DNA from: Spironucleus salmonicida
Lineage: Eukaryota
DNA length: 64,000 nucleotides
Direction: 5' to 3'
Assembly (NCBI RefSeq): GCF_000497125.1
Contig: NC_090600.1
Location: 496,001 to 560,000, forward strand
The notes below the pieces were generated by a model. It was not told where the DNA came from and ran no database searches. It saw only the letters and a list, made by a program, of their open reading frames with translations. Positions within the stretch are counted from its first letter, which is position 1. The number at the start of each line of letters is the position of its first letter. The translations under genes were made by a program, and so were the position numbers. Shown here one piece after another: positions 22,601 through 57,318 of the stretch.

Positions 22601-22645
22601 ACGTACAGCTAAACGTTATTATCTTGTCAGAGTTAAGTCTTCCAT
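13637..22645 (-). CDS. Giant coiled-coil protein, ~3002 aa, containing 12 apparently identical 220-aa repeats
   Basis: Continuous TGA-free frame from ATG 22645 (MEDLTLTRQQRLAV...) through the repeat array to GAG-TGA at 13637; heptad-rich E/Q/K/L composition. Confidence 0.88.
13899..21883. repeat. Coding tandem repeat, 660-bp unit x ~12.1
   Basis: Sequence lines repeat every 11 lines (660 bp); ORF-track entries recur at +660; no unit differences seen by eye. Confidence 0.98.
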
Positions 22646-29100: not shown

Positions 29101-30128
29101 AGACCGAGTGCTGCACGAACAACTGCGGCGGATGCGAAATGGAGGCCCCCACAGCTTGCACCAAATGCAAAATCGACTCCGATTTCCCATTCCTCAAAAA
29201 CGCGAACTGCGTCGGCTGCACTGCCGCTATTCCAAACTGCCGCGCCTGCACCCAGGCCGACCAGTTCACGGACATCACCTGCGACGCCTGCACGGCGAGT
29301 TTCACCGGCGTGACCTGCGATACCGACTGCGGCGCCGGCATGAAGCAGTTCAACGGTACGTTCTGCCAGAGCGTTTCATGCGAGTTTTCCGTGCCGTGCG
29401 GCGGCAACGGGGCCTGCAAAACCACGTCTGGCAACAGCACCTGCGAGTGCAAGCCCGGATTTAGCGGCCGGAACTGCGAGAATCTGGAAACCTGCGAAGT
29501 CTAAAATTGCCAAACCTGCGTTTAGGGCGACGCCAAAAAGTGCAAAGTTTGCGCTCCAAACTACTAGCTCACCAGCTATAAACACTGCGAACTCAAGCAA
29601 AGCTGCGTAGTGGAGAACTGCCTCACCTGCGTCTGGAACAACCCAAACCGCTGCCAGGGGTGCGCCCAAGATTACGATTTGACGGCCGCTGGGTCCTGCG
29701 AAATAGCCTAAATATGCAAGGTCAAGGACTGCCAAACCTGCGTTATGGGGAATGAAAATTAGTGCGAAATCTGCTACAAAAGCTTGGATCCATTGACAAA
29801 TTGCACAGACTGCAAGTTTGGGCTTTTCTTGTCCTAGAATGTGTGCAAGTCATGCGGTGAAGGGTGCGGGCGCTGCACCAGCGCAAATAAGTGTATTTCC
29901 TGCGCGGACGGCTCGATTCCCGTTAAGGGAAAGTGTTCAGTGCAAACTGCACAGATTGGTGCGGGGGGAATCGCTGGAATCGTTATCGCGCTGATAGCGG
30001 TTTTGCTTGTTGTTATACTGACAGTAATTTTGGTAAAGAGACGCAAATCAAATGCAAAAAGGGCTTAATATGTTGATTAAGGCCTTCTAGACAGAGGTAA
30101 CGGTAGCTAGGTGGCTATTGTTGAGTGA
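26124..30128 (+). CDS. Cysteine-rich membrane protein (about 8 CXXC/EGF modules, C-terminal TM, KRRK tail), 1334 aa, copy 2
   Basis: Open frame with repeated C..C...IPNC..C.Q / FTG..C / C.G.G.C...C.C..G..G.NCE; TM IAGIVIALIAVLLVVILTVILV then KRRKSNAKRAQYVDQ...VAIVE and GAG-TGA. Confidence 0.93.
30124..30128 (+). promoter_or_regulatory. Putative polyadenylation signal AGTGA overlapping the stop codon (representative example)
   Basis: Same AG-TGA ending in the genes stopping at 8677, 9911, 13637, 33870, 57318, 59536 and 63883; resembles the described diplomonad AGTRAA/AGTGA signals. Confidence 0.7.
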
Positions 30129-34138: not shown

Positions 34139-37100
34139 ATGTCCCTCTTAAATTCTTTTAAGAACTAGCCATTTAACGAATAAAAAAGTTCATTTTATGA
34201 ACTTATGAAGCATTATTTAGATCGTGATTAGAAAAGAATTTATGAAATTGAACTTGTTAAGAAAACAGTTTCATTTTAAGAATAACAAATTACAGAATTA
34301 GAAAATTTATTATAATCTAAGAATGAAATTCTTACATTTTATCTTTAAAAACCTTAAAATGTGTAACCTATTGAGTTTGACTTTGATGAACTCAGATCAG
34401 AAATCCTATCTCTTTCACAAAGTGAAGTATCAAATGCTTCTGTTTAAAATATTTAATCTTTATTAGAATCATTTGATAATTAGTTTTATAATTCATAATA
34501 AGGCAAAAAGTAGTAAGATATGATTTTATAATTAGAAAATCGTAATAAAGATTTGGTATCATAAATTTTGCAAATGCAACAAGATAACTAATTAATTGCA
34601 TAGTAAGCTGACTTAGAATAATAAAAATTATTTCATAACTTATAATCTTAGGATTAATAAAGACAGAGTACCTAGGCTTTGCAAAAATTATTAGCAGAGT
34701 CAAATTCAGCAAGTAAAATTCTTAAGAATTTAATTGTAGATAAAGACTAAGAATTGAAACTGATAAGAAATGAATTATAAATATCTAAGTAAGCTCTTAC
34801 TTAAAGAAATAACGAAATAGACCAACTAGGTTAAAATGTTTCTAATTAAGATATCCTAAGATAAGAATTAGAAAAGTAAGTATCTAGTTTAAGATCATAA
34901 GGTCTATTAGAAAAGGAAACCTTACGTCATTAAGTAAAAGTGTTATAATAGAGAGTAATAGAATAAAATAATATTAAACCATAAGTGGTTAATCAATTTA
35001 TTTAAGCCTCTACAAGTAATAACGATAGTATAAATATCGAGTAGCTAAAATAAGAAAATTAATATCTAAATGAAGTTATAGGAACAATGGTTTAAGATAT
35101 TGAAGAAAAAAATAAAGTTAAGTAATTACCAGACCGTAGTTTATTAGCACTTCAAACATAGATATCGCAGTTACAGCAGGAGCTCGAGTCCAAACAGGCC
35201 GAGTCCCAGTAGAATACTACCGACTTAGAGGCTCTGAAAGCTTAGAACGAGTCCCTTGCCAAAGAGGTTTCGGACCTCTAGGCGTAGGCCGACGAGATCA
35301 AGGCCACGGCCGATGAAAATGTCGTGGCGCTCGCCGACGAGATCAAGCAACTGTAGGATGCCCACCAGGCTGAAGCTGATCGCCTGAACGAACAACTAGG
35401 CTAGCAAGCCGCATCCTCCGAAGAACTTAAGCAGGAGATCTAAGACCACAGGGCCGCCGAGGAAGAGCAGGACGCTTAAATTCAAGCACTCCACGAAGAG
35501 CGTTCAACGCTCCAGACCTAGCTCGAACTTGCTACGGCGGTTACTGAATCCCACGAGGTCACTTTCCAGACCGAAGTCGCCCAAGAATGCGCTGAGGTCC
35601 AATGTGGCGCAGAGCTGAACGACTTTGATACCCAGGCCACTGTCGACCTAGTGGTCGCTTCCACTCAACCGTCTTCCCGCGAGGATAGCGTGAATGAGGC
35701 CGCTCTCGCTCTTCAGGAGCAGAATGCCGAGCTTGTCGAGCAGATATCGCAGTTACAGCAGGAGCTCTAGTCCAAACAGGCCGAGTCCCAGTAGAATACT
35801 ACCGACTTAGAGGCTCTGAAAGCTTAGAACGAGTCCCTTGCCAAAGAGGTTTCGGACCTCTAGGCGTAGGCCGACGAGATCAAGGCCACGGCCGATGAAA
35901 ATGTCGTGGCGCTCGCCGACGAGATCAAGCAACTGTAGGATGCCCACCAGGCTGAAGCTGATCGCCTGAACGAACAACTAGGCTAGCAAGCCGCATCCTC
36001 CGAAGAACTTAAGCAGGAGATCTAAGACCACAGGGCCGCCGAGGAAGAGCAGGACGCTTAAATTCAAGCACTCCACGAAGAGCGTTCAACGCTCCAGACC
36101 TAGCTCGAACTTGCTACGGCGGTTACTGAATCCCACGAGGTCACTTTCCAGACCGAAGTCGCCCAAGAATGCGCTGAGGTCCAATGTGGCGCAGAGCTGA
36201 ACGACTTTGATACCCAGGCCACTGTCGACCTAGTGGTCGCTTCCACTCAACCGTCTTCCCGCGAGGATAGCGTGAATGAGGCCGCTCTCGCTCTTCAGGA
36301 GCAGAATGCCGAGCTTGTCGAGCAGATATCGCAGTTACAGCAGGAGCTCGAGTCCAAACAGGCCGAGTCCCAGTAGAATACTACCGACTTAGAGGCTCTG
36401 AAAGCTTAGAACGAGTCCCTTGCCAAAGAGGTTTCGGACCTCTAGGCGTAGGCCGACGAGATCAAGGCCACGGCCGATGAAAATGTCGTGGCGCTCGCCG
36501 ACGAGATCAAGCAACTGTAGGATGCCCACCAGGCTGAAGCTGATCGCCTGAACGAACAACTAGGCTAGCAAGCCGCATCCTCCGAAGAACTTAAGCAGGA
36601 GATCTAAGACCACAGGGCCGCCGAGGAAGAGCAGGACGCTTAAATTCAAGCACTCCACGAAGAGCGTTCAACGCTCCAGACCTAGCTCGAACTTGCTACG
36701 GCGGTTACTGAATCCCACGAGGTCACTTTCCAGACCGAAGTCGCCCAAGAATGCGCTGAGGTCCAATGTGGCGCAGAGCTGAACGACTTTGATACCCAGG
36801 CCACTGTCGACCTAGTGGTCGCTTCCACTCAACCGTCTTCCCGCGAGGATAGCGTGAATGAGGCCGCTCTCGCTCTTCAGGAGCAGAATGCCGAGCTTGT
36901 CGAGCAGATATCGCAGTTACAGCAGGAGCTCTAGTCCAAACAGGCCGAGTCCCAGTAGAATACTACCGACTTAGAGGCTCTGAAAGCTTAGAACGAGTCC
37001 CTTGCCAAAGAGGTTTCGGACCTCTAGGCGTAGGCCGACGAGATCAAGGCCACGGCCGATGAAAATGTCGTGGCGCTCGCCGACGAGATCAAGCAACTGT

Positions 37101-40100
37101 AGGATGCCCACCAGGCTGAAGCTGATCGCCTGAACGAACAACTAGGCTAGCAAGCCGCATCCTCCGAAGAACTTAAGCAGGAGATCTAAGACCACAGGGC
37201 CGCCGAGGAAGAGCAGGACGCTTAAATTCAAGCACTCCACGAAGAGCGTTCAACGCTCCAGACCTAGCTCGAACTTGCTACGGCGGTTACTGAATCCCAC
37301 GAGGTCACTTTCCAGACCGAAGTCGCCCAAGAATGCGCTGAGGTCCAATGTGGCGCAGAGCTGAACGACTTTGATACCCAGGCCACTGTCGACCTAGTGG
37401 TCGCTTCCACTCAACCGTCTTCCCGCGAGGATAGCGTGAATGAGGCCGCTCTCGCTCTTCAGGAGCAGAATGCCGAGCTTGTCGAGCAGATATCGCAGTT
37501 ACAGCAGGAGCTCTAGTCCAAACAGGCCGAGTCCCAGTAGAATACTACCGACTTAGAGGCTCTGAAAGCTTAGAACGAGTCCCTTGCCAAAGAGGTTTCG
37601 GACCTCTAGGCGTAGGCCGACGAGATCAAGGCCACGGCCGATGAAAATGTCGTGGCGCTCGCCGACGAGATCAAGCAACTGTAGGATGCCCACCAGGCTG
37701 AAGCTGATCGCCTGAACGAACAACTAGGCTAGCAAGCCGCATCCTCCGAAGAACTTAAGCAGGAGATCTAAGACCACAGGGCCGCCGAGGAAGAGCAGGA
37801 CGCTTAAATTCAAGCACTCCACGAAGAGCGTTCAACGCTCCAGACCTAGCTCGAACTTGCTACGGCGGTTACTGAATCCCACGAGGTCACTTTCCAGACC
37901 GAAGTCGCCCAAGAATGCGCTGAGGTCCAATGTGGCGCAGAGCTGAACGACTTTGATACCCAGGCCACTGTCGACCTAGTGGTCGCTTCCACTCAACCGT
38001 CTTCCCGCGAGGATAGCGTGAATGAGGCCGCTCTCGCTCTTCAGGAGCAGAATGCCGAGCTTGTCGAGCAGATATCGCAGTTACAGCAGGAGCTCGAGTC
38101 CAAACAGGCCGAGTCCCAGTAGAATACTACCGACTTAGAGGCTCTGAAAGCTTAGAACGAGTCCCTTGCCAAAGAGGTTTCGGACCTCTAGGCGTAGGCC
38201 GACGAGATCAAGGCCACGGCCGATGAAAATGTCGTGGCGCTCGCCGACGAGATCAAGCAACTGTAGGATGCCCACCAGGCTGAAGCTGATCGCCTGAACG
38301 AACAACTAGGCTAGCAAGCCGCATCCTCCGAAGAACTTAAGCAGGAGATCTAAGACCACAGGGCCGCCGAGGAAGAGCAGGACGCTTAAATTCAAGCACT
38401 CCACGAAGAGCGTTCAACGCTCCAGACCTAGCTCGAACTTGCTACGGCGGTTACTGAATCCCACGAGGTCACTTTCCAGACCGAAGTCGCCCAAGAATGC
38501 GCTGAGGTCCAATGTGGCGCAGAGCTGAACGACTTTGATACCCAGGCCACTGTCGACCTAGTGGTCGCTTCCACTCAACCGTCTTCCCGCGAGGATAGCG
38601 TGAATGAGGCCGCTCTCGCTCTTCAGGAGCAGAATGCCGAGCTTGTCGAGCAGATATCGCAGTTACAGCAGGAGCTCGAGTCCAAACAGGCCGAGTCCCA
38701 GTAGAATACTACCGACTTAGAGGCTCTGAAAGCTTAGAACGAGTCCCTTGCCAAAGAGGTTTCGGACCTCTAGGCGTAGGCCGACGAGATCAAGGCCACG
38801 GCCGATGAAAATGTCGTGGCGCTCGCCGACGAGATCAAGCAACTGTAGGATGCCCACCAGGCTGAAGCTGATCGCCTGAACGAACAACTAGGCTAGCAAG
38901 CCGCATCCTCCGAAGAACTTAAGCAGGAGATCTAAGACCACAGGGCCGCCGAGGAAGAGCAGGACGCTTAAATTCAAGCACTCCACGAAGAGCGTTCAAC
39001 GCTCCAGACCTAGCTCGAACTTGCTACGGCGGTTACTGAATCCCACGAGGTCACTTTCCAGACCGAAGTCGCCCAAGAATGCGCTGAGGTCCAATGTGGC
39101 GCAGAGCTGAACGACTTTGATACCCAGGCCACTGTCGACCTAGTGGTCGCTTCCACTCAACCGTCTTCCCGCGAGGATAGCGTGAATGAGGCCGCTCTCG
39201 CTCTTCAGGAGCAGAATGCCGAGCTTGTCGAGCAGATATCGCAGTTACAGCAGGAGCTCGAGTCCAAACAGGCCGAGTCCCAGTAGAATACTACCGACTT
39301 AGAGGCTCTGAAAGCTTAGAACGAGTCCCTTGCCAAAGAGGTTTCGGACCTCTAGGCGTAGGCCGACGAGATCAAGGCCACGGCCGATGAAAATGTCGTG
39401 GCGCTCGCCGACGAGATCAAGCAACTGTAGGATGCCCACCAGGCTGAAGCTGATCGCCTGAACGAACAACTAGGCTAGCAAGCCGCATCCTCCGAAGAAC
39501 TTAAGCAGGAGATCTAAGACCACAGGGCCGCCGAGGAAGAGCAGGACGCTTAAATTCAAGCACTCCACGAAGAGCGTTCAACGCTCCAGACCTAGCTCGA
39601 ACTTGCTACGGCGGTTACTGAATCCCACGAGGTCACTTTCCAGACCGAAGTCGCCCAAGAATGCGCTGAGGTCCAATGTGGCGCAGAGCTGAACGACTTT
39701 GATACCCAGGCCACTGTCGACCTAGTGGTCGCTTCCACTCAACCGTCTTCCCGCGAGGATAGCGTGAATGAGGCCGCTCTCGCTCTTCAGGAGCAGAATG
39801 CCGAGCTTGTCGAGCAGATATCGCAGTTACAGCAGGAGCTCGAGTCCAAACAGGCCGAGTCCCAGTAGAATACTACCGACTTAGAGGCTCTGAAAGCTTA
39901 GAACGAGTCCCTTGCCAAAGAGGTTTCGGACCTCTAGGCGTAGGCCGACGAGATCAAGGCCACGGCCGATGAAAATGTCGTGGCGCTCGCCGACGAGATC
40001 AAGCAACTGTAGGATGCCCACCAGGCTGAAGCTGATCGCCTGAACGAACAACTAGGCTAGCAAGCCGCATCCTCCGAAGAACTTAAGCAGGAGATCTAAG

Positions 40101-43100
40101 ACCACAGGGCCGCCGAGGAAGAGCAGGACGCTTAAATTCAAGCACTCCACGAAGAGCGTTCAACGCTCCAGACCTAGCTCGAACTTGCTACGGCGGTTAC
40201 TGAATCCCACGAGGTCACTTTCCAGACCGAAGTCGCCCAAGAATGCGCTGAGGTCCAATGTGGCGCAGAGCTGAACGACTTTGATACCCAGGCCACTGTC
40301 GACCTAGTGGTCGCTTCCACTCAACCGTCTTCCCGCGAGGATAGCGTGAATGAGGCCGCTCTCGCTCTTCAGGAGCAGAATGCCGAGCTTGTCGAGCAGA
40401 TATCGCAGTTACAGCAGGAGCTCTAGTCCAAACAGGCCGAGTCCCAGTAGAATACTACCGACTTAGAGGCTCTGAAAGCTTAGAACGAGTCCCTTGCCAA
40501 AGAGGTTTCGGACCTCTAGGCGTAGGCCGACGAGATCAAGGCCACGGCCGATGAAAATGTCGTGGCGCTCGCCGACGAGATCAAGCAACTGTAGGATGCC
40601 CACCAGGCTGAAGCTGATCGCCTGAACGAACAACTAGGCTAGCAAGCCGCATCCTCCGAAGAACTTAAGCAGGAGATCTAAGACCACAGGGCCGCCGAGG
40701 AAGAGCAGGACGCTTAAATTCAAGCACTCCACGAAGAGCGTTCAACGCTCCAGACCTAGCTCGAACTTGCTACGGCGGTTACTGAATCCCACGAGGTCAC
40801 TTTCCAGACCGAAGTCGCCCAAGAATGCGCTGAGGTCCAATGTGGCGCAGAGCTGAACGACTTTGATACCCAGGCCACTGTCGACCTAGTGGTCGCTTCC
40901 ACTCAACCGTCTTCCCGCGAGGATAGCGTGAATGAGGCCGCTCTCGCTCTTCAGGAGCAGAATGCCGAGCTTGTCGAGCAGATATCGCAGTTACAGCAGG
41001 AGCTCGAGTCCAAACAGGCCGAGTCCCAGTAGAATACTACCGACTTAGAGGCTCTGAAAGCTTAGAACGAGTCCCTTGCCAAAGAGGTTTCGGACCTCTA
41101 GGCGTAGGCCGACGAGATCAAGGCCACGGCCGATGAAAATGTCGTGGCGCTCGCCGACGAGATCAAGCAACTGTAGGATGCCCACCAGGCTGAAGCTGAT
41201 CGCCTGAACGAACAACTAGGCTAGCAAGCCGCATCCTCCGAAGAACTTAAGCAGGAGATCTAAGACCACAGGGCCGCCGAGGAAGAGCAGGACGCTTAAA
41301 TTCAAGCACTCCACGAAGAGCGTTCAACGCTCCAGACCTAGCTCGAACTTGCTACGGCGGTTACTGAATCCCACGAGGTCACTTTCCAGACCGAAGTCGC
41401 CCAAGAATGCGCTGAGGTCCAATGTGGCGCAGAGCTGAACGACTTTGATACCCAGGCCACTGTCGACCTAGTGGTCGCTTCCACTCAACCGTCTTCCCGC
41501 GAGGATAGCGTGAATGAGGCCGCTCTCGCTCTTCAGGAGCAGAATGCCGAGCTTGTCGAGCAGATATCGCAGTTACAGCAGGAGCTCGAGTCCAAACAGG
41601 CCGAGTCCCAGTAGAATACTACCGACTTAGAGGCTCTGAAAGCTTAGAACGAGTCCCTTGCCAAAGAGGTTTCGGACCTCTAGGCGTAGGCCGACGAGAT
41701 CAAGGCCACGGCCGATGAAAATGTCGTGGCGCTCGCCGACGAGATCAAGCAACTGTAGGATGCCCACCAGGCTGAAGCTGATCGCCTGAACGAACAACTA
41801 GGCTAGCAAGCCGCATCCTCCGAAGAACTTAAGCAGGAGATCTAAGACCACAGGGCCGCCGAGGAAGAGCAGGACGCTTAAATTCAAGCACTCCACGAAG
41901 AGCGTTCAACGCTCCAGACCTAGCTCGAACTTGCTACGGCGGTTACTGAATCCCACGAGGTCACTTTCCAGACCGAAGTCGCCCAAGAATGCGCTGAGGT
42001 CCAATGTGGCGCAGAGCTGAACGACTTTGATACCCAGGCCACTGTCGACCTAGTGGTCGCTTCCACTCAACCGTCTTCCCGCGAGGATAGCGTGAATGAG
42101 GCCGCTCTCGCTCTTCAGGAGCAGAATGCCGAGCTTGTCGAGCAGATATCGCAGTTACAGCAGGAGCTCGAGTCCAAACAGGCCGAGTCCCAGTAGAATA
42201 CTACCGACTTAGAGGCTCTGAAAGCTTAGAACGAGTCCCTTGCCAAAGAGGTTTCGGACCTCTAGGCGTAGGCCGACGAGATCAAGGCCACGGCCGATGA
42301 AAATGTCGTGGCGCTCGCCGACGAGATCAAGCAACTGTAGGATGCCCACCAGGCTGAAGCTGATCGCCTGAACGAACAACTAGGCTAGCAAGCCGCATCC
42401 TCCGAAGAACTTAAGCAGGAGATCTAAGACCACAGGGCCGCCGAGGAAGAGCAGGACGCTTAAATTCAAGCACTCCACGAAGAGCGTTCAACGCTCCAGA
42501 CCTAGCTCGAACTTGCTACGGCGGTTACTGAATCCCACGAGGTCACTTTCCAGACCGAAGTCGCCCAAGAATGCGCTGAGGTCCAATGTGGCGCAGAGCT
42601 GAACGACTTTGATACCCAGGCCACTGTCGACCTAGTGGTCGCTTCCACTCAACCGTCTTCCCGCGAGGATAGCGTGAATGAGGCCGCTCTCGCTCTTCAG
42701 GAGCAGAATGCCGAGCTTGTCGAGCAGATATCGCAGTTACAGCAGGAGCTCGAGTCCAAACAGGCCGAGTCCCAGTAGAATACTACCGACTTAGAGGCTC
42801 TGAAAGCTTAGAACGAGTCCCTTGCCAAAGAGGTTTCGGACCTCTAGGCGTAGGCCGACGAGATCAAGGCCACGGCCGATGAAAATGTCGTGGCGCTCGC
42901 CGACGAGATCAAGCAACTGTAGGATGCCCACCAGGCTGAAGCTGATCGCCTGAACGAACAACTAGGCTAGCAAGCCGCATCCTCCGAAGAACTTAAGCAG
43001 GAGATCTAAGACCACAGGGCCGCCGAGGAAGAGCAGGACGCTTAAATTCAAGCACTCCACGAAGAGCGTTCAACGCTCCAGACCTAGCTCGAACTTGCTA

Positions 43101-46100: not shown

Positions 46101-49100
46101 CTAAGCGCGACTCTATCGGCCTCCTCGACAGGGAGCTCGATGACTTTAAGGACGCCTTCAAGCAGCTTTCTACCTCCAACGAGGAAACCCTGCGCGAGGT
46201 AGCCGCATTGCGTGCCGATAAGCAACTACTCCAGAGCGAGGTTGAAGAGCTTCGCAACCAAATGCAGAACCTCGCCGAGCAGCTAGAAGATACCCAGCGC
46301 GAGAACACCGCCGCCCAGGACGCAACTACCGACCTCTAAGAACGTCTTGCACGCGAAACCGAGTCTCTCACCCGCACCGTGGCCGAAAAGGAGCAGGCTG
46401 TCTACCAGTTACAGCAGGAGCTCGAGTCCAAACAGGCCGAGTCCCAGCAGCCAATCGCCACCCTCGAGCCCGCCGCAGACACACCCGTAATGGTCGCACA
46501 GACCAGTTAGACTGAAGTCGCCCTCGACTAGCTTGAGGCTCTCTAGGCCCAGGCCGAAGAACAGCGCGCGGCGTACGAACAATAGCTAACTGCCCTCAAC
46601 GAGGAACTAGAGGAGTTGAAGCTGAGCGAATCAGACTTGATCGCAGAAAACGACGAACTTCAAGGCAAGGTCGACGAGCTTGAGGAAGTTCTCGAATACG
46701 TCAACCAGCAGAGCACTTCTAAGCGCGACTCTATCGGCCTCCTCGACAGGGAGCTCGATGACTTTAAGGACGCCTTCAAGCAGCTTTCTACCTCCAACGA
46801 GGAAACCCTGCGCGAGGTAGCCGCATTGCGTGCCGATAAGCAACTACTCCAGAGCGAGGTTGAAGAGCTTCGCAACCAAATGCAGAACCTCGCCGAGCAG
46901 CTAGAAGATACCCAGCGCGAGAACACCGCCGCCCAGGACGCAACTACCGACCTCTAAGAACGTCTTGCACGCGAAACCGAGTCTCTCACCCGCACCGTGG
47001 CCGAAAAGGAGCAGGCTGTCTACCAGTTACAGCAGGAGCTCGAGTCCAAACAGGCCGAGTCCCAGCAGCCAATCGCCACCCTCGAGCCCGCCGCAGACAC
47101 ACCCGTAATGGTCGCACAGACCAGTTAGACTGAAGTCGCCCTCGACTAGCTTGAGGCTCTCTAGGCCCAGGCCGAAGAACAGCGCGCGGCGTACGAACAA
47201 TAGCTAACTGCCCTCAACGAGGAACTAGAGGAGTTGAAGCTGAGCGAATCAGACTTGATCGCAGAAAACGACGAACTTCAAGGCAAGGTCGACGAGCTTG
47301 AGGAAGTTCTCGAATACGTCAACCAGCAGAGCACTTCTAAGCGCGACTCTATCGGCCTCCTCGACAGGGAGCTCGATGACTTTAAGGACGCCTTCAAGCA
47401 GCTTTCTACCTCCAACGAGGAAACCCTGCGCGAGGTAGCCGCATTGCGTGCCGATAAGCAACTACTCCAGAGCGAGGTTGAAGAGCTTCGCAACCAAATG
47501 CAGAACCTCGCCGAGCAGCTAGAAGATACCCAGCGCGAGAACACCGCCGCCCAGGACGCAACTACCGACCTCTAAGAACGTCTTGCACGCGAAACCGAGT
47601 CTCTCACCCGCACCGTGGCCGAAAAGGAGCAGGCTGTCTACCAGTTACAGCAGGAGCTCGAGTCCAAACAGGCCGAGTCCCAGCAGCCAATCGCCACCCT
47701 CGAGCCCGCCGCAGGCACACCCGTAATGGTCGCACAGACCAGTTAGACTGAAGTCGCCCTCGACTAGCTTGAGGCTCTCTAGGCCCAGGCCGAAGAACAG
47801 CGCGCGGCGTACGAACAATAGCTAACTGCCCTCAACGAGGAACTAGAGGAGTTGAAGCTGAGCGAATCAGACTTGATCGCAGAAAACGACGAACTTCAAG
47901 GCAAGGTCGACGAGCTTGAGGAAGTTCTCGAATACGTCAACCAGCAGAGCACTTCTAAGCGCGACTCTATCGGCCTCCTCGGCAGGGAGCTCGATGACTT
48001 TAAGGACGCCTTCAAGCAGCTTTCTACCTCCAACGAGGAAACCCTGCGCGAGGTAGCCGCATTGCGTGCCGATAAGCAACTACTCCAGAGCGAGGTTGAA
48101 GAGCTTCGCAACCAAATGCAGAACCTCGCCGAGCAGCTAGAAGATACCCAGCGCGAGAACACCGCCGCCCAGGACGCAACTACCGACCTCTAAGAACGTC
48201 TTGCACGCGAAACCGAGTCTCTCACCCGCACCGTGGCCGAAAAGGAGCAGGCTGTCTACCAGTTACAGCAGGAGCTCGAGTCCAAACAGGCCGAGTCCCA
48301 GCAGCCAATCGCCACCCTCGAGCCCGCCGCAGGCACACCCGTAATGGTCGCACAGACCAGTTAGACTGAAGTCGCCCTCGACTAGCTTGAGGCTCTCTAG
48401 GCCCAGGCCGAAGAACAGCGCGCGGCGTACGAACAATAGCTAACTGCCCTCAACGAGGAACTAGAGGAGTTGAAGCTGAGCGAATCAGACTTGATCGCAG
48501 AAAACGACGAACTTCAAGGCAAGGTCGACGAGCTTGAGGAAGTTCTCGAATACGTCAACCAGCAGAGCACTTCTAAGCGCGACTCTATCGGCCTCCTCGG
48601 CAGGGAGCTCGATGACTTTAAGGACGCCTTCAAGCAGCTTTCTACCTCCAACGAGGAAACCCTGCGCGAGGTAGCCGCATTGCGTGCCGATAAGCAACTA
48701 CTCCAGAGCGAGGTTGAAGAGCTTCGCAACCAAATGCAGAACCTCGCCGAGCAGCTAGAAGATACCCAGCGCGAGAACACCGCCGCCCAGGACGCAACTA
48801 CCGACCTCTAAGAACGTCTTGCACGCGAAACCGAGTCTCTCACCCGCACCGTGGCCGAAAAGGAGCAGGCTGTCTACCAGTTACAGCAGGAGCTCGAGTC
48901 CAAACAGGCCGAGTCCCAGCAGCCAATCGCCACCCTCGAGCCCGCCGCAGGCACACCCGTAATGGTCGCACAGACCAGTTAGACTGAAGTCGCCCTCGAC
49001 TAGCTTGAGGCTCTCTAGGCCCAGGCCGAAGAACAGCGCGCGGCGTACGAACAATAGCTAACTGCCCTCAACGAGGAACTAGAGGAGTTGAAGCTGAGCG

Positions 49101-52100
49101 AATCAGACTTGATCGCAGAAAACGACGAACTTCAAGGCAAGGTCGACGAGCTTGAGGAAGTTCTCGAATACGTCAACCAGCAGAGCACTTCTAAGCGCGA
49201 CTCTATCGGCCTCCTCGACAGGGAGCTCGATGACTTTAAGGACGCCTTCAAGCAGCTTTCTACCTCCAACGAGGAAACCCTGCGCGAGGTAGCCGCATTG
49301 CGTGCCGATAAGCAACTACTCCAGAGCGAGGTTGAAGAGCTTCGCAACCAAATGCAGAACCTCGCCGAGCAGCTAGAAGATACCCAGCGCGAGAACACCG
49401 CCGCCCAGGACGCAACTACCGACCTCTAAGAACGTCTTGCACGCGAAACCGAGTCTCTCACCCGCACCGTGGCCGAAAAGGAGCAGGCTGTCTACCAGTT
49501 ACAGCAGGAGCTCGAGTCCAAACAGGCCGAGTCCCAGCAGCCAATCGCCACCCTCGAGCCCGCCGCAGACACACCCGTAATGGTCGCACAGACCAGTTAG
49601 ACTGAAGTCGCCCTCGACTAGCTTGAGGCTCTCTAGGCCCAGGCCGAAGAACAGCGCGCGGCGTACGAACAATAGCTAACTGCCCTCAACGAGGAACTAG
49701 AGGAGTTGAAGCTGAGCGAATCAGACTTGATCGCAGAAAACGACGAACTTCAAGGCAAGGTCGACGAGCTTGAGGAAGTTCTCGAATACGTCAACCAGCA
49801 GAGCACTTCTAAGCGCGACTCTATCGGCCTCCTCGACAGGGAGCTCGATGACTTTAAGGACGCCTTCAAGCAGCTTTCTACCTCCAACGAGGAAACCCTG
49901 CGCGAGGTAGCCGCATTGCGTGCCGATAAGCAACTACTCCAGAGCGAGGTTGAAGAGCTTCGCAACCAAATGCAGAACCTCGCCGAGCAGCTAGAAGATA
50001 CCCAGCGCGAGAACACCGCCGCCCAGGACGCAACTACCGACCTCTAAGAACGTCTTGCACGCGAAACCGAGTCTCTCACCCGCACCGTGGCCGAAAAGGA
50101 GCAGGCTGTCTACCAGTTACAGCAGGAGCTCGAGTCCAAACAGGCCGAGTCCCAGCAGCCAATCGCCACCCTCGAGCCCGCCGCAGGCACACCCGTAATG
50201 GTCGCACAGACCAGTTAGACTGAAGTCGCCCTCGACTAGCTTGAGGCTCTCTAGGCCCAGGCCGAAGAACAGCGCGCGGCGTACGAACAATAGCTAACTG
50301 CCCTCAACGAGGAACTAGAGGAGTTGAAGCTGAGCGAATCAGACTTGATCGCAGAAAACGACGAACTTCAAGGCAAGGTCGACGAGCTTGAGGAAGTTCT
50401 CGAATACGTCAACCAGCAGAGCACTTCTAAGCGCGACTCTATCGGCCTCCTCGCAGGGAGCTCGATGACTTTAAGGACGCCTTCAAGCAGCTTTCTACCT
50501 CCAACGAGGAAACCCTGCGCGAGGTAGCCGCATTGCGTGCCGATAAGCAACTACTCCAGAGCGAGGTTGAAGAGCTTCGCAACCAAATGCAGAACCTCGC
50601 CGAGCAGCTAGAAGATACCCAGCGCGAGAACACCGCCGCCCAGGACGCAACTACCGACCTCTAAGAACGTCTTGCACGCGAAACCGAGTCTCTCACCCGC
50701 ACCGTGGCCGAAAAGGAGCAGGCTGTCTACCAGTTACAGCAGGAGCTCGAGTCCAAACAGGCCGAGTCCCAGCAGCCAATCGCCACCCTCGAGCCCGCCG
50801 CAGACACACCCGTAATGGTCGCACAGACCAGTTAGACTGAAGTCGCCCTCGACTAGCTTGAGGCTCTCTAGGCCCAGGCCGAAGAACAGCGCGCGGCGTA
50901 CGAACAATAGCTAACTGCCCTCAACGAGGAACTAGAGGAGTTGAAGCTGAGCGAATCAGACTTGATCGCAGAAAACGACGAACTTCAAGGCAAGGTCGAC
51001 GAGCTTGAGGAAGTTCTCGAATACGTCAACCAGCAGAGCACTTCTAAGCGCGACTCTATCGGCCTCCTCGGCAGGGAGCTCGATGACTTTAAGGACGCCT
51101 TCAAGCAGCTTTCTACCTCCAACGAGGAAACCCTGCGCGAGGTAGCCGCATTGCGTGCCGATAAGCAACTACTCCAGAGCGAGGTTGAAGAGCTTCGCAA
51201 CCAAATGCAGAACCTCGCCGAGCAGCTAGAAGATACCCAGCGCGAGAACACCGCCGCCCAGGACGCAACTACCGACCTCTAAGAACGTCTTGCACGCGAA
51301 ACCGAGTCTCTCACCCGCACCGTGGCCGAAAAGGAGCAGGCTGTCTACCAGTTACAGCAGGAGCTCGAGTCCAAACAGGCCGAGTCCCAGCAGCCAATCG
51401 CCACCCTCGAGCCCGCCGCAGGCACACCCGTAATGGTCGCACAGACCAGTTAGACTGAAGTCGCCCTCGACTAGCTTGAGGCTCTCTAGGCCCAGGCCGA
51501 AGAACAGCGCGCGGCGTACGAACAATAGCTAACTGCCCTCAACGAGGAACTAGAGGAGTTGAAGCTGAGCGAATCAGACTTGATCGCAGAAAACGACGAA
51601 CTTCAAGGCAAGGTCGACGAGCTTGAGGAAGTTCTCGAATACGTCAACCAGCAGAGCACTTCTAAGCGCGACTCTATCGGCCTCCTCGGCAGGGAGCTCG
51701 ATGACTTTAAGGACGCCTTCAAGCAGCTTTCTACCTCCAACGAGGAAACCCTGCGCGAGGTAGCCGCATTGCGTGCCGATAAGCAACTACTCCAGAGCGA
51801 GGTTGAAGAGCTTCGCAACCAAATGCAGAACCTCGCCGAGCAGCTAGAAGATACCCAGCGCGAGAACACCGCCGCCCAGGACGCAACTACCGACCTCTAA
51901 GAACGTCTTGCACGCGAAACCGAGTCTCTCACCCGCACCGTGGCCGAAAAGGAGCAGGCTGTCTACCAGTTACAGCAGGAGCTCGAGTCCAAACAGGCCG
52001 AGTCCCAGCAGCCAATCGCCACCCTCGAGCCCGCCGCAGACACACCCGTAATGGTCGCACAGACCAGTTAGACTGAAGTCGCCCTCGACTAGCTTGAGGC

Positions 52101-55100
52101 TCTCTAGGCCCAGGCCGAAGAACAGCGCGCGGCGTACGAACAATAGCTAACTGCCCTCAACGAGGAACTAGAGGAGTTGAAGCTGAGCGAATCAGACTTG
52201 ATCGCAGAAAACGACGAACTTCAAGGCAAGGTCGACGAGCTTGAGGAAGTTCTCGAATACGTCAACCAGCAGAGCACTTCTAAGCGCGACTCTATCGGCC
52301 TCCTCGGCAGGGAGCTCGATGACTTTAAGGACGCCTTCAAGCAGCTTTCTACCTCCAACGAGGAAACCCTGCGCGAGGTAGCCGCATTGCGTGCCGATAA
52401 GCAACTACTCCAGAGCGAGGTTGAAGAGCTTCGCAACCAAATGCAGAACCTCGCCGAGCAGCTAGAAGATACCCAGCGCGAGAACACCGCCGCCCAGGAC
52501 GCAACTACCGACCTCTAAGAACGTCTTGCACGCGAAACCGAGTCTCTCACCCGCACCGTGGCCGAAAAGGAGCAGGCTGTCTACCAGTTACAGCAGGAGC
52601 TCGAGTCCAAACAGGCCGAGTCCCAGCAGCCAATCGCCACCCTCGAGCCCGCCGCAGACACACCCGTAATGGTCGCACAGACCAGTTAGACTGAAGTCGC
52701 CCTCGACTAGCTTGAGGCTCTCTAGGCCCAGGCCGAAGAACAGCGCGCGGCGTACGAACAATAGCTAACTGCCCTCAACGAGGAACTAGAGGAGTTGAAG
52801 CTGAGCGAATCAGACTTGATCGCAGAAAACGACGAACTTCAAGGCAAGGTCGACGAGCTTGAGGAAGTTCTCGAATACGTCAACCAGCAGAGCACTTCTA
52901 AGCGCGACTCTATCGGCCTCCTCGACAGGGAGCTCGATGACTTTAAGGACGCCTTCAAGCAGCTTTCTACCTCCAACGAGGAAACCCTGCGCGAGGTAGC
53001 CGCATTGCGTGCCGATAAGCAACTACTCCAGAGCGAGGTTGAAGAGCTTCGCAACCAAATGCAGAACCTCGCCGAGCAGCTAGAAGATACCCAGCGCGAG
53101 AACACCGCCGCCCAGGACGCAACTACCGACCTCTAAGAACGTCTTGCACGCGAAACCGAGTCTCTCACCCGCACCGTGGCCGAAAAGGAGCAGGCTGTCT
53201 ACCAGTTACAGCAGGAGCTCGAGTCCAAACAGGCCGAGTCCCAGCAGCCAATCGCCACCCTCGAGCCCGCCGCAGACACACCCGTAATGGTCGCACAGAC
53301 CAGTTAGACTGAAGTCGCCCTCGACTAGCTTGAGGCTCTCTAGGCCCAGGCCGAAGAACAGCGCGCGGCGTACGAACAATAGCTAACTGCCCTCAACGAG
53401 GAACTAGAGGAGTTGAAGCTGAGCGAATCAGACTTGATCGCAGAAAACGACGAACTTCAAGGCAAGGTCGACGAGCTTGAGGAAGTTCTCGAATACGTCA
53501 ACCAGCAGAGCACTTCTAAGCGCGACTCTATCGGCCTCCTCGACAGGGAGCTCGATGACTTTAAGGACGCCTTCAAGCAGCTTTCTACCTCCAACGAGGA
53601 AACCCTGCGCGAGGTAGCCGCATTGCGTGCCGATAAGCAACTACTCCAGAGCGAGGTTGAAGAGCTTCGCAACCAAATGCAGAACCTCGCCGAGCAGCTA
53701 GAAGATACCCAGCGCGAGAACACCGCCGCCCAGGACGCAACTACCGACCTCTAAGAACGTCTTGCACGCGAAACCGAGTCTCTCACCCGCACCGTGGCCG
53801 AAAAGGAGCAGGCTGTCTACCAGTTACAGCAGGAGCTCGAGTCCAAACAGGCCGAGTCCCAGCAGCCAATCGCCACCCTCGAGCCCGCCGCAGGCACACC
53901 CGTAATGGTCGCACAGACCAGTTAGACTGAAGTCGCCCTCGACTAGCTTGAGGCTCTCTAGGCCCAGGCCGAAGAACAGCGCGCGGCGTACGAACAATAG
54001 CTAACTGCCCTCAACGAGGAACTAGAGGAGTTGAAGCTGAGCGAATCAGACTTGATCGCAGAAAACGACGAACTTCAAGGCAAGGTCGACGAGCTTGAGG
54101 AAGTTCTCGAATACGTCAACCAGCAGAGCACTTCTAAGCGCGACTCTATCGGCCTCCTCGACAGGGAGCTCGATGACTTTAAGGACGCCTTCAAGCAGCT
54201 TTCTACCTCCAACGAGGAAACCCTGCGCGAGGTAGCCGCATTGCGTGCCGATAAGCAACTACTCCAGAGCGAGGTTGAAGAGCTTCGCAACCAAATGCAG
54301 AACCTCGCCGAGCAGCTAGAAGATACCCAGCGCGAGAACACCGCCGCCCAGGACGCAACTACCGACCTCTAAGAACGTCTTGCACGCGAAACCGAGTCTC
54401 TCACCCGCACCGTGGCCGAAAAGGAGCAGGCTGTCTACCAGTTACAGCAGGAGCTCGAGTCCAAACAGGCCGAGTCCCAGCAGCCAATCGCCACCCTCGA
54501 GCCCGCCGCAGACACACCCGTAATGGTCGCACAGACCAGTTAGACTGAAGTCGCCCTCGACTAGCTTGAGGCTCTCTAGGCCCAGGCCGAAGAACAGCGC
54601 GCGGCGTACGAACAATAGCTAACTGCCCTCAACGAGGAACTAGAGGAGTTGAAGCTGAGCGAATCAGACTTGATCGCAGAAAACGACGAACTTCAAGGCA
54701 AGGTCGACGAGCTTGAGGAAGTTCTCGAATACGTCAACCAGCAGAGCACTTCTAAGCGCGACTCTATCGGCCTCCTCGGCAGGGAGCTCGATGACTTTAA
54801 GGACGCCTTCAAGCAGCTTTCTACCTCCAACGAGGAAACCCTGCGCGAGGTAGCCGCATTGCGTGCCGATAAGCAACTACTCCAGAGCGAGGTTGAAGAG
54901 CTTCGCAACCAAATGCAGAACCTCGCCGAGCAGCTAGAAGATACCCAGCGCGAGAACACCGCCGCCCAGGACGCAACTACCGACCTCTAAGAACGTCTTG
55001 CACGCGAAACCGAGTCTCTCACCCGCACCGTGGCCGAAAAGGAGCAGGCTGTCTACCAGTTACAGCAGGAGCTCGAGTCCAAACAGGCCGAGTCCCAGCA

Positions 55101-57318
55101 GCCAATCGCCACCCTCGAGCCCGCCGCAGGCACACCCGTAATGGTCGCACAGACCAGTTAGACTGAAGTCGCCCTCGACTAGCTTGAGGCTCTCTAGGCC
55201 CAGGCCGAAGAACAGCGCGCGGCGTACGAACAATAGCTAACTGCCCTCAACGAGGAACTAGAGGAGTTGAAGCTGAGCGAATCAGACTTGATCGCAGAAA
55301 ACGACGAACTTCAAGGCAAGGTCGACGAGCTTGAGGAAGTTCTCGAATACGTCAACCAGCAGAGCACTTCTAAGCGCGACTCTATCGGCCTCCTCGACAG
55401 GGAGCTCGATGACTTTAAGGACGCCTTCAAGCAGCTTTCTACCTCCAACGAGGAAACCCTGCGCGAGGTAGCCGCATTGCGTGCCGATAAGCAACTACTC
55501 CAGAGCGAGGTTGAAGAGCTTCGCAACCAAATGCAGAACCTCGCCGAGCAGCTAGAAGATACCCAGCGCGAGAACACCGCCGCCCAGGACGCAACTACCG
55601 ACCTCTAAGAACGTCTTGCACGCGAAACCGAGTCTCTCACCCGCACCGTGGCCGAAAAGGAGCAGGCTGTCTACCAGTTACAGCAGGAGCTCGAGTCCAA
55701 ACAGGCCGAGTCCCAGCAGCCAATCGCCACCCTCGAGCCCGCCGCAGACACACCCGTAATGGTCGCACAGACCAGTTAGACTGAAGTCGCCCTCGACTAG
55801 CTTGAGGCTCTCTAGGCCCAGGCCGAAGAACAGCGCGCGGCGTACGAACAATAGCTAACTGCCCTCAACGAGGAACTAGAGGAGTTGAAGCTGAGCGAAT
55901 CAGACTTGATCGCAGAAAACGACGAACTTCAAGGCAAGGTCGACGAGCTTGAGGAAGTTCTCGAATACGTCAACCAGCAGAGCACTTCTAAGCGCGACTC
56001 TATCGGCCTCCTCGGCAGGGAGCTCGATGACTTTAAGGACGCCTTCAAGCAGCTTTCTACCTCCAACGAGGAAACCCTGCGCGAGGTAGCCGCATTGCGT
56101 GCCGATAAGCAACTACTCCAGAGCGAGGTTGAAGAGCTTCGCAACCAAATGCAGAACCTCGCCGAGCAGCTAGAAGATACCCAGCGCGAGAACACCGCCG
56201 CCCAGGACGCAACTACCGACCTCTAAGAACGTCTTGCACGCGAAACCGAGTCTCTCACCCGCACCGTGGCCGAAAAGGAGCAGGCTGTCTACCAGTTACA
56301 GCAGGAGCTCGAGTCCAAACAGGCCGAGTCCCAGCAGCCAATCGCCACCCTCGAGCCCGCCGCAGACACACCCGTAATGGTCGCACAGACCAGTTAGACT
56401 GAAGTCGCCCTCGACTAGCTTGAGGCTCTCTAGGCCCAGGCCGAAGAACAGCGCGCGGCGTACGAACAATAGCTAACTGCCCTCAACGAGGAACTAGAGG
56501 AGTTGAAGCTGAGCGAATCAGACTTGATCGCAGAAAACGACGAACTTCAAGGCAAGGTCGACGAGCTTGAGGAAGTTCTCGAATACGTCAACCAGCAGAG
56601 CACTTCTAAGCGCGACTCTATCGGCCTCCTCGGCAGGGAGCTCGATGACTTTAAGGACGCCTTCAAGCAGCTTTCTACCTCCAACGAGGAAACCCTGCGC
56701 GAGGTAGCCGCATTGCGTGCCGATAAGCAACTACTCCAGAGCGAGGTTGAAGAGCTTCGCAACCAAATGCAGAACCTCGCCGAGCAGCTAGAAGATACCC
56801 AGCGCGAGAACACCGCCGCCCAGGACGCAACTACCGACCTCTAAGAACGTCTTGCACGCGAAACCGAGTCTCTCACCCGCACCGTGGCCGAAAAGGAGCA
56901 GGCTGTCTACCAGTTACAGCAGGACCTTAAGGAAACCTTATCTTAGCTTACATAATTGAAAATTACATCTCTATAATAAAATGAAATCTAAATATAAGAA
57001 AGACAGAAACTTCTATTATAAAACTCATTGTATAGCTCTGAGTCTACATATGTTGAAGAAGGTTAATAGGAATTCAGTTGCGAATAATAAACGCAAAAGC
57101 AAAGTTAGATATTACTAGAAAGCTAGTAATCAGAAATGTAGATTACGCAATCTATTCATAAATAGATTTCATTGAAATAACTTGATCAAAATGATGAAGA
57201 TGATATAAAATCATGTTATCTTATTGTTCTATCTGAATTATATAAAGCATAGGATGATATACTAAAGATGAAGTATAAACAATTAATTTAAGAAGAGGAT
57301 TTGAAATATAATAAGTGA
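34139..57318 (+). CDS. Giant repetitive coiled-coil protein, ~7726 aa if the 1-nt gap at ~50453 is an error
   Basis: Open from ATG 34139 (MSLLNSFKNQ...) through the 582-bp and 618-bp arrays to AAG-TGA at 57316-57318; one frameshift in unit 12 of the 618-bp array. Confidence 0.82.
35160..43357. repeat. Coding tandem repeat A, 582-bp unit (194 aa) x14
   Basis: GATATCGCAGTTACAG recurs at 35161, 35743 ... 38071, 40981 and 43309 (period 582). Confidence 0.97.
43316..56924. repeat. Coding tandem repeat B, 618-bp unit (206 aa) x22
   Basis: Track ORF MKLSESD... recurs 22 times at +618, once at +617. Confidence 0.97.

Follow-up and report, generated by a model that had tools for sequence, protein, structure and literature searches.

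Positions 34,139 to 57,318 of the window (the whole stretch of Spironucleus salmonicida DNA that was analysed, 64,000 nucleotides) hold two different tandem repeat arrays, A and B, whose units are headed by the same 42-nt linker. This raises the question of whether the two arrays form one gene, and what part the linker has played in building it. Our analysis points, with some reserve, to one diplomonad nuclear gene that probably encodes a putative cytoskeletal coiled-coil protein of ~7,700 amino acids, in which both arrays are homogenised, the linker marks the border at which they were founded and a one-base gap in the twelfth B unit (B12) is a consensus error.

Under translation table 11 there is no ORF of at least 150 amino acids anywhere in 34139-57318, and table 6 gives two, 34139..50944 (5601 aa) and 50587..57318 (2243 aa), so that the single 23-kb ORF originally predicted was not recovered. 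In these two ORFs 243 and 70 TAA/TAG codons (313) are read as a residue. The frame is open only with TAA and TAG as glutamine, which is the diplomonad code with TGA as the sole stop. The available text of the S. salmonicida genome paper (PMC3916229) describes both this reassignment and AGTGA as a stop/polyadenylation signal. We identified AGTGA at the gene stop at 57318 and at four of the five other gene ends checked in the window; it is absent from the shifted-frame stop at 50944. A ciliate origin, to which the code had first pointed, was rejected in view of this motif and of a nearby cysteine-rich gene whose best named match is from S. salmonicida.

Array anatomy and the place of the linker

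The 42-mer has 36 matches in the window, all on the + strand (32 exact and four with one mismatch), against a chance expectation of none (100 shuffles). Linker-to-linker spacings run through 14 of 582 nt, 11 of 618 nt, one of 617 nt and nine of 618 nt, and together with the last full B unit at 56293-56910 they give a total of 14 A and 22 B units with no spacer between them, in agreement with the original prediction (Table 1). Ten of the 14 A units equal the consensus and the other four carry a single G>T at unit offset 18. Full length was seen in 20 of the 21 B units compared, with 0-2 departures each from the consensus, at offsets 73 and 340. The first 42 nt of the A and B units are exactly common (45 nt if one mismatch is allowed), and the switch from A to B falls where it had been placed, inside a linker copy identical at 42 of 42 nt. 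Past the linker the local nucleotide similarity of A and B is not significant, with 96 of 300 codon shuffles equal or better, and outside the linker their protein score has a z of 3.2, a statistic that residue shuffles inflate for coiled coils. The proposed limits of the arrays also held. The start at 35160 lies 8 nt before the first linker, these 8 nt (AGATATCG) being common to the N-terminal flank and the end of the A unit, and the end at 56924 lies 14 nt into a 37th linker; relative to the linker the borders of the repeated zone are thus at -8, inside it for the A/B switch, and at +14. The C-terminal flank takes the form of a diverged AT-rich linker copy onward, with 22 of 42 nt identical, the first 14 of them contiguous.

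Table 1 Features of the array gene and of its related neighbour, in window coordinates
Feature	Position	Strand	Remarks
5′ coding flank, unique, AT-rich, N-terminal ~340 aa (about 343), helical/coiled-coil-like	34139..35159	+	First ATG of table-6 ORF; GC 0.236, GC3 0.168; no Pfam family
A array, 14 units of 582 nt (194 aa), each headed by the 42-nt linker; first linker at 35168	35160..43315	+	GC 0.558, GC3 0.649
Linker copy with A-to-B switch (QLQQELESKQAESQ)	43316..43357	+	Modelled within one continuous helix that begins in the last part of the unit before
B array, 22 units of 618 nt (206 aa); B12 (50114-50730) of 617 nt	43316..56910	+	GC 0.571, GC3 0.694
Missing base in B12, approximate place; A/G polymorphic site, unit offset 340	50454	+	Frame shift in the assembly
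Final 14 nt identical to the linker; end of the homogenised zone	56911..56924	+	
3′ coding flank, unique, AT-rich, C-terminal ~130 aa, TGA inside AGTGA	56925..57318	+	GC 0.249, GC3 0.231
Related array gene, 3002 aa, 12.1 x 660-nt array at 13899-21883	13637..22645	-	Table-6 ORF; unit homologous to B

The linker had been proposed to act as a common in-frame recombination joint. The analysis confirmed that the joint is seamless and in frame and that the start, the A/B switch and the end of the repeated zone each fall inside the linker or no more than 8 nt from it (14 nt into it for the end); ongoing swapping of modules found no support, there being a single A-to-B switch. On our best reading the linker copies served as a homology or conversion border when the arrays were founded, which would explain why the transition from A to B is seamless and in frame. 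By descent the linker would be part of the B-type unit, an old module of which the neighbouring 3,002-aa gene is likewise composed. Every A unit starts with the linker too, and the linker may mark the short homology or conversion border at which both arrays were founded.

Amplification and contraction at the present day need no linker, because the identical units of 582 or 618 nt give far more homology than 42 nt, a short homology beside the perfect match between like units. It therefore seems unlikely that the linker is a portable in-frame crossover still in use, through which A and B units are amplified, deleted or swapped to yield alleles variable in length and composition. The 42 of 42 nt identity, which takes in all synonymous sites in units that are otherwise not alignable, speaks for such a joint, as does the position of the three borders in the linker or at most 8 nt away; moreover, if the arrays are old, as their GC enrichment suggests, linker identity needs upkeep, and conversion across arrays would provide it. 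Against it, the unit type changes just once along the 36 linkers, from A to B and never back; the T variant at linker offset 18 occurs in four of the 14 A units and in none of the 21 B units compared; and the contigs of DNA runs X1 and X4 contain no further left context of the linker.

GC content at the array edges and a related neighbouring gene

At either edge of the repeated zone, and likewise of the array of a neighbouring gene, a single 60-nt bin takes GC content from 0.22-0.27 to 0.50-0.65, and this jump (~25 % to ~57 %) at the array edges is new here. Also new is that the B unit is homologous to the unit of this second, 12-copy array gene 12 kb away: aligned with the neighbour's 220-aa unit it is 30 % identical over 341 aa (E 2e-19), and the alignment crosses the linker region. 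Set against this 30 % protein identity to the neighbour's homologous units, the B units differ at 0-2 of 618 nt, as befits a homogenised tandem array running head-to-tail in frame, and in the neighbour all 11 units compared are identical. The two genes have in common AT-rich unique ends around a GC-rich homogenised core, the GC step within 60 nt at both edges and the AGTGA stop. The neighbour differs in having a single unit type, no copy of the 42-mer and no A-type module, and in its C-terminal flank, which is clearly a diverged unit that keeps the phase of the array (z 7.1, 0 of 300 shuffles); the same could not be demonstrated for the studied gene. In the latter the N-terminal flank compared with the A unit gives a z of 3.4 (one of 300 shuffles) and the C-terminal flank has no significant similarity to the A or B unit; that its own flanks are old diverged units is weakly suggested.

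In the neighbour, the diverged flank unit and the array unit agree at 26 residues, where GC3 is 0.23 in the former vs 0.77 in the latter, and the share of GARP residues is 0.19 in array units vs 0.02-0.09 in flanks. The GC step would fit long-lived homogenised arrays under GC-biased gene conversion, as read from composition alone. Unequal exchange and gene conversion between whole units would uphold the uniformity of the arrays, and GC-biased conversion would have moved their codons and amino acids off the AT-rich norm of the genome. In the accessible part of PMC9509377 duplicated regions of S. salmonicida are given a GC content of 44.7 % vs 30.7 % elsewhere, and GC enrichment of duplicated DNA by gene conversion has been reported for human segmental duplications in the corresponding part of PMC10172114. 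The studied arrays resemble the duplicated DNA of these two accounts in that recombining repeats are GC-richer than their single-copy surroundings. Unlike those duplications, they show the step inside single ORFs and within 60 nt, and a GC3 of ~0.2 vs 0.65-0.75 that reaches the amino-acid composition; the bias of conversion is here what we infer. For diplomonads, this within-ORF step at the array borders would allow GC-biased gene conversion to be examined in a clean, naturally occurring contrast.

A more ambitious reading, which we hold to be quite unlikely, is that both arrays and that of the neighbour are long-lived zones of continuous GC-biased conversion between units, which would have remade codon and amino-acid composition up to a border of less than 60 nt, that the linker is kept identical between the two unrelated unit types by conversion across arrays and that this in-frame coupling both fixes and alters how long a micrometre-scale 'ruler' fibre is. 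If true, these array genes could serve as a natural measure of how biased conversion is, whether mitotic or meiotic, in an organism of unsettled sexuality.

The one-base gap in B12 and the integrity of the locus

The split into two ORFs arises because one base is missing in B12, at unit offset 340. This is an A/G site with 11 A and 10 G in the assembly and the base missing in B12, and with a ratio of 1798:1400 in the contigs of DNA run X4. The gap is most likely a long-read consensus error at a polymorphic site rather than a real frameshift. A real frameshift would leave either a decaying pseudogene or a truncated ~5,600-aa protein with an out-of-frame end, and is very unlikely even though the gap is present in the assembly as given, since it falls exactly at the polymorphic site, where a consensus caller is likeliest to fail, and the remaining 6.8 kb after it is still open in the original frame to a canonical AGTGA. 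The 194 annotated pseudogenes of the S. salmonicida reference genome, as reported in the part of PMC9509377 at hand, favour decay to some extent, as does the absence of the protein and its relatives from two protein collections, which is expected if none was ever filed. Weakly against it, the DNA contigs of X1 and X4 show no indel; contigs can drop rare variants, though X4 kept a variant contig of depth 30.7 elsewhere. The G variant at B offset 73, carried by nine of the 21 B units compared, is unlisted in the contigs of all four runs, and some unit-to-unit differences may therefore be consensus noise.

On the preferred reading of an intact gene, the likely consensus error may have hidden it from protein catalogues. 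Searches with the N-terminal flank and the first A unit (537 aa) gave no relatives among proteins of 941-2685 aa and a single match (E 3.8e-4), with no others, among 1.84 billion representatives, and the last B unit with the C-terminal flank (341 aa) had none among proteins of 187-597 aa. The available portions of the S. salmonicida genome papers (PMC3916229, PMC9509377) contain no mention of 'coiled' or of intragenic arrays, and the titles and abstracts of the papers matched by a literature search name no Spironucleus salmonicida coiled-coil repeat protein; supplementary tables may list the gene.

The contigs of DNA runs X1 and X4 contain only three left contexts entering the linker, namely the N-terminal flank, the A-unit end and the B-unit end, and no other module joined to it. 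As the N-terminal flank is the single unique left context, both arrays must share one locus. The A:B contig depth ratio is 0.65 (X1) and 0.63 (X4) vs 14/22 = 0.64 in the assembly. Such depths do not measure copy number; those of X1 (165.9 for A and 254.3 for B vs 14.8 for the unique contig) correspond to ~11 A and ~17 B units. No Logan contig spans the A-to-B junction, these contigs breaking at the linker because the 42-mer exceeds their 31-letter word. With such a shared linker, short reads and tryptic peptides cannot prove the junction, which matters for annotating and validating genes of this kind. No run on record as RNA is listed as carrying this sequence, and X5-X8 are RNA only by guess. 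In the runs so guessed, depth goes from none at the N-terminal flank (its words absent, share 0.52) through 7.3 and 28.1 in A to 70.9 and 140.9 in B, and metagenome contigs gave 0 matches to the exact 42-mer.

It is highly improbable that two genes or loci were misjoined through the 42-mer, or units miscounted. In favour of such an artefact, near-identical units across 21.8 kb are difficult to span, the gap at the polymorphic site betrays an imperfect consensus, the offset-73 variant is unseen in short-read contigs and the depth relative to the unique contig gives ~11 A and ~17 B copies where the assembly has 14 and 22. Against it, a second locus needs a second unique entry to the linker, of which none is listed, the N-terminal flank being at single-copy depth, the A:B depth ratios agree with 14/22, an ATG start stands before the A array and an AGTGA gene end after the B array, and the depth rising from N-terminal flank to A to B fits a single 3′-biased transcript, a weak hint given that RNA is guessed.

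Predicted structure and nature of the product

A single-sequence AlphaFold2 model of A14 joined to B1 (mean pLDDT 75) has helices at residues 2-141, 171-206, 229-296 and 301-399, with low-confidence gaps at 142-170 and 207-228. The A unit is modelled in it as a helix (2-141), a low-confidence stretch (142-170) and a second helix (171-194) that continues into the next linker. Hydrophobic power at period 3.5 was reached by four of 500 shuffles for the B unit and by 97 of 500 for the A unit. In a homodimer test the 123-aa B core scored 0.37 vs 0.00 for the best of three controls. Contacts were i-to-i, recurring every 3-4 residues without a break for 117 residues; at least 99 % of them agreed across runs, and the pLDDT of the partner was at least 87. 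Of 30 proteins solved as one-chain pairs 21 attain the mark for a homodimer, and of 23 solved as single chains none does; for eukaryotes the figures are 17 of 29 pairs, but only one of the seven that have no older solved relative. Solved structures include many coiled coils, so the pass of the B core may come from likeness. The B core is predicted, without alignments, to form a parallel in-register dimer.

Pfam searches on four parts of the protein gave nothing above the curated cut-off and only sub-threshold coiled-coil matches. An intermediate filament protein (PF00038) was rejected, the B unit reaching 20.6 bits vs a cut-off of 40 and the A unit having no match. So was a diplomonad cysteine-rich surface protein of the VSP/CRMP type, as there is almost no cysteine (two per A unit and none in B) and, for a membrane protein of that kind, no hydrophobic span in either flank of the translation. 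No signal peptide or anchor is evident by eye in the N-terminal sequence. The modelling suggests an orphan segmented coiled-coil protein made of helical rods and short flexible spacers.

The product would most likely be a cytoplasmic protein of ~7,700 aa (~0.85 MDa), a putative cytoskeletal structural fibre or tether. AT-rich unique ends of about 343 aa and ~130 aa would enclose adjoining GC-rich arrays, the first with 14 A units (194 aa) and the second with 22 B units (206 aa), and a unit would comprise a helical rod of ~165-180 residues and a flexible spacer of 22-30 residues. The rods are predicted to pair as parallel in-register dimers, and from the helix lengths the extended molecule would be of the order of 1 micrometre.

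Trypanosoma brucei has giant repetitive cytoskeletal proteins, such as microtubule-associated repetitive proteins and repeat proteins of the flagellum attachment zone. They resemble the product proposed here in their great size, their structural role in the cytoplasm and their make-up of many near-identical tandem units, and also in being lineage-specific and difficult to assemble. The likeness is one of design, no relation in sequence being expected; the studied protein has long coiled-coil rods (194 and 206 aa) in place of short microtubule-binding repeats, and two unrelated arrays with an exact common junction segment. Streptococcal M proteins are dimeric coiled-coil fibrils with separate A, B and C repeat blocks, the number of which is altered by intragenic homologous recombination. 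They share with the studied protein coiled-coil rods of different repeat blocks in series, with block size expected to change by recombination; they differ in being bacterial, secreted and wall-anchored, a few hundred amino acids long and built of short repeats, whereas the studied protein has a eukaryote host, is 20-fold larger and shows no evident signal peptide or anchor. The gene is striking, yet it is an ordinary kind of repeat-built structural protein. The cytoskeleton of this fish-pathogenic diplomonad is poorly known, and the gene with its related neighbour would add to it a lineage-specific structural protein of very large size.

The window also contains two CRMP-like genes in the neighbourhood, each with a cysteine-rich ectodomain, a C-terminal membrane span and a short basic tail. 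For the cysteine-rich gene at 26124..30128 the best named match (54 % identity) is 'Cysteine-rich membrane protein 2, Spironucleus salmonicida', a paralogue.

Reading frame and organisation of the repeats

No ORF of at least 150 aa was found in the region of the giant repeat gene using the standard or bacterial code, and the frame is open only when TAA and TAG are read as sense (table 6), with 313 such codons across two ORFs. In S. salmonicida both triplets are reported to specify Gln, leaving TGA as the sole stop (PMC3916229). The original prediction of a single ORF does not hold for the sequence as assembled, since table 6 yields two ORFs, 34139..50944 and 50587..57318. The break lies in the twelfth B unit (B12), which is short of one base at unit offset 340 (around window position 50454), precisely where B units are polymorphic for A and G. 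We regard this gap as probably an error of the consensus. The AGTGA motif, described as a joint stop and polyadenylation signal in this species (PMC3916229), is present at the 57318 end and at four of the five other gene ends checked and is absent at the shifted-frame stop, 50944. No contigs carrying an indel were listed in the DNA runs X1 and X4, though elsewhere a variant contig with a depth of 30.7 had been retained; as rare variants can be dropped from contigs this is a weak argument, and the gap may be a real frameshift.

The 42-nt linker that heads every A and B unit occurs 36 times on the forward strand, 32 copies being exact and four having one mismatch, where chance would give none. 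Successive linkers are spaced 14 times by 582 nt, then 11 times by 618, once by 617 and 9 times by 618 nt, and these distances, with the final complete B unit at 56293-56910, bear out the predicted tally of 14 A units (194 aa each) and 22 B units (206 aa each). The linker is indeed common to both unit types, which are identical over their first 42 nt (45 nt with one mismatch), while past the linker no nucleotide similarity of A to B was detected, the best local alignment score being equalled in 96 of 300 codon shuffles. A diverged and AT-rich version of the linker follows in the C-flank, with 22 of 42 nt identical, the first 14 of them contiguous.

Ten of the 14 A units match their consensus and four carry a G>T change at unit offset 18, converting GAG to TAG. 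This site (35185 and 35767 among others), which is also linker offset 18, is the only variable one in the A unit; TAG, a stop under the standard code, is read as Gln here. Twenty of the 21 B units compared are full-length and show 0-2 departures from the consensus, confined to offsets 73 and 340, both A/G, with all four combinations of letters at the two sites represented. The G at offset 73 (e.g. 44007, 45861) is carried by 9 of the 21 and is listed in none of the four runs examined; it may reflect noise in the consensus, or the contigs may have lost it, and part of the unit-to-unit pattern may likewise be consensus noise.

Positions of the repeat genes and of other features in the window
Feature	Position	Strand	Description
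Gene under study	34139..57318	+	N-flank, A array, B array, C-flank
Repeated zone, start	35160	+	8 nt common to N-flank and A-unit end
Repeated zone, end	56924	+	14 nt inside 37th linker
Neighbouring array gene	13637..22645	-	3,002 aa, giant coiled-coil
Array of neighbouring gene	13899-21883	-	12.1 copies of 660-nt unit
Inverted duplication, left copy	1-3890		Extends past window edge
Inverted duplication, right copy	26096-29985
Left AT-rich ORF	5523-7094	+	~520 aa
V-ATPase subunit d gene	9911-11218	-
Cys-rich membrane protein gene	26124..30128		1,334 aa
Right AT-rich ORF	30740-32278	+	~520 aa
First downstream ORF	57833-59509	+	558 aa, helical, Gln-rich
Second downstream ORF	60794-63883	+	1,029 aa, helical, Gln-rich

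Chaining of the arrays and proposed history of the linker

The contigs representing the four runs are made from words of 31 letters and stop inside the 42-nt linker; no record bridging A to B was present among them. Trypsin cleaves within the linker as well (after ...ESK), and a tryptic peptide would thus not tell an A-to-B junction from A-to-A or B-to-B, whereas cleavage at Arg alone would yield one long peptide specific to the junction. Three sequences only enter the linker in X1 and X4, namely the A-end, the B-end and the N-flank (a contig of 5,269 nt at depth 14.8), no further loose ends being listed in either run. Since only the N-flank is a unique entry, both arrays must be linked in series at one locus. 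The A:B depth ratio is 0.65 in X1 (165.9/254.3) and 0.63 in X4 (about 1950/3082), against 0.64 (14/22) in the assembly; relative to the unique contig the depths correspond to about 11 A and 17 B copies, although such depths are no copy number. Counts at the A/G site of B-unit offset 340 are 1798:1400 in X4 and 11 A to 10 G in the assembly. X5 and X6, which are taken as RNA by guess only, have A depths of 7.3 and 28.1 and B depths of 70.9 and 140.9, and words of the N-flank appear to be missing from them (share 0.52), a depth pattern that gives a weak hint of one 3′-biased transcript.

The window holds a second array gene, of which 11 units were compared and found to be 100% identical. Homology between its 220-aa unit and the B unit extends over 341 aa, or more than one and a half units, with 30% identity (E 2e-19), and the alignment passes through the linker region; the linker is thus a part of the B-type unit by descent. 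Neither the B unit nor the neighbour's unit is significantly similar to the A unit. The C-flank of the neighbour consists of a diverged unit that keeps the phase of the array (z 7.1, equalled in none of 300 shuffles), thus the neighbour's array is a homogenised core within an array that is older and has decayed. The flanks of the gene under study did not show such an origin, the N-flank giving a borderline z of 3.4 against the A unit and the C-flank being not significant as a diverged A or B unit.

The joint proposed originally is real, and each of the three borders of the repeated zone falls within the linker or beside it. In the most economical history an ancestral gene would have carried linker-like copies about every 200 aa around two segments, 'a' and 'b'; the two arrays could then have been founded by unequal exchange between such copies, or conversion tracts may end there. 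Later expansion, contraction and homogenisation would have proceeded by exchange between whole identical units of 582 or 618 nt, for which the linker is not needed. The alternative put forward originally, that the linker is a swap site in frequent use for module exchange, appears unlikely. The 42 nt are identical at synonymous sites too, though both arrays look old, which points to some exchange across the arrays. However the switch from A to B occurs once and the reverse switch never, the T variant at linker offset 18 is found in A units only, the linker has no other partners (no other modules joined to the 42-mer were seen in X1 or X4), and the window contains no copies of it outside the gene.

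Base composition of the arrays

The flanks of the gene under study have a GC content of 0.24-0.25 (GC3 0.17-0.23) and its A and B units one of 0.56-0.57 (GC3 0.65-0.69), while the neighbour's unit, with GC 0.58 and GC3 0.75, also sits between AT-rich flanks. At all four array edges of the two genes the step in GC is finished inside one 60-nt bin. Where the neighbour's flank unit and array unit have the same residue (26 positions), GC3 is 0.23 in the flank versus 0.77 in the array, therefore the shift does not stem from the protein sequence. It extends to amino-acid usage, with a GARP share of 0.19 in the arrays and 0.02-0.09 in the flanks and a FYMINK share of 0.10-0.17 in the arrays and 0.28-0.33 in the flanks. 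Coding and intergenic sequence of S. salmonicida have been reported at 36.2% and 25.4% GC (PMC3916229). The GC enrichment of duplicated DNA is already published for this species (mean 44.7% versus 30.7% elsewhere), and gene conversion has been suggested around its Cys-rich families (PMC9509377). Our inference from the composition is that these long-recombining arrays have been subject to GC-biased gene conversion.

Predicted protein and surrounding genes

None of the four protein parts profiled (N-flank of 343 aa, A unit, B unit and C-flank of 135 aa) matched a Pfam family above the cut-off, coiled-coil profiles being sub-threshold only (for instance Filament against the B unit, 20.6 bits with a cut-off of 40). 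A search with the N-flank and first A unit among 1.84 billion representatives, from which the protein itself is also absent, returned no relatives save one match at E 3.8e-4, and word-based searches found none within their length limits. A single-sequence AlphaFold2 model of the last A and first B unit (mean pLDDT 75) contains helices at 2-141, 171-206, 229-296 and 301-399, with low-confidence stretches at 142-170 in A and at 207-228 in B, the latter Pro-rich and following the linker. Helix 171-206 of the model would place the linker within a helix that already starts in the tail of the unit before. Hydrophobic periodicity of 3.5 residues is clear in the B unit (equalled in 4 of 500 shuffles) and not clear in the A unit (97 of 500).

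In a homodimer test the 123-aa core of the B unit scored 0.37 versus 0.00 for the best of three controls, with at least 99% contact agreement between runs and a partner pLDDT of at least 87. Of 30 proteins solved as pairs of one chain 21 pass the mark, and of 23 solved as single chains none does; among eukaryotes it is passed by 17 of 29 pairs, and by just one of the seven that have no older solved relative. The modelled contacts are i-to-i with a 3-4 spacing unbroken across 117 residues, as in a parallel in-register coiled coil, although the pass may reflect likeness to solved coiled coils, which are abundant among structures. Some 6,200 residues are predicted as helical, which, with the usual rise per residue of a helix, would give an extended length on the order of 1 micrometre. 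By-eye inspection of the N- and C-flanks revealed no evident signal peptide or membrane span. We therefore propose a cytoplasmic structural fibre or tether as the product.

Giant proteins of near-identical repeats are familiar in parasitic protists, and the present protein resembles them in this build. Streptococcal M proteins, which form coiled-coil fibrils with several repeat blocks and change by intragenic recombination, share with it the multi-block coiled-coil design. The gene under study is an orphan. Its noteworthy features are an exact junction common to two arrays of unrelated units, a module with a homologue in the neighbour, and the sharp GC step within an ORF. Such genes are not mentioned in the passages covered of the two genome papers (PMC3916229, PMC9509377), nor does a protein of this kind appear in the titles or abstracts of the papers found on S. 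salmonicida and coiled-coil repeats.

The two copies of an inverted duplication, 97.8% identical across 3.9 kb and bearing two CRMP2-like Cys-rich membrane protein genes, flank the V-ATPase d gene and the neighbouring array gene. Among named proteins, the closest to the product of the Cys-rich gene in the right copy is 'Cysteine-rich membrane protein 2, Spironucleus salmonicida' (54% identity), and the same genome has a 95% identical copy on a contig of 1.73 Mb. This relative and the AGTGA gene ends point to S. salmonicida or a close relative as the source of the window, rather than to a ciliate, which the code alone had suggested. In the table-6 ORF of the V-ATPase subunit d gene (Pfam E 3.4e-42, PDB relatives E 1e-38) the match does not begin until residue 86-96; the true start hence probably lies further in, or there is an intron or upstream extension. 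Two ORFs directly downstream of the gene under study match no Pfam family, and the first of these has a GC-richer middle and ends in TGTGA, not AGTGA. The two AT-rich ORFs each encode a C-terminal hydrophobic span followed by a short tail, and their products may be paralogous type I membrane proteins located on either side of the inverted duplication.
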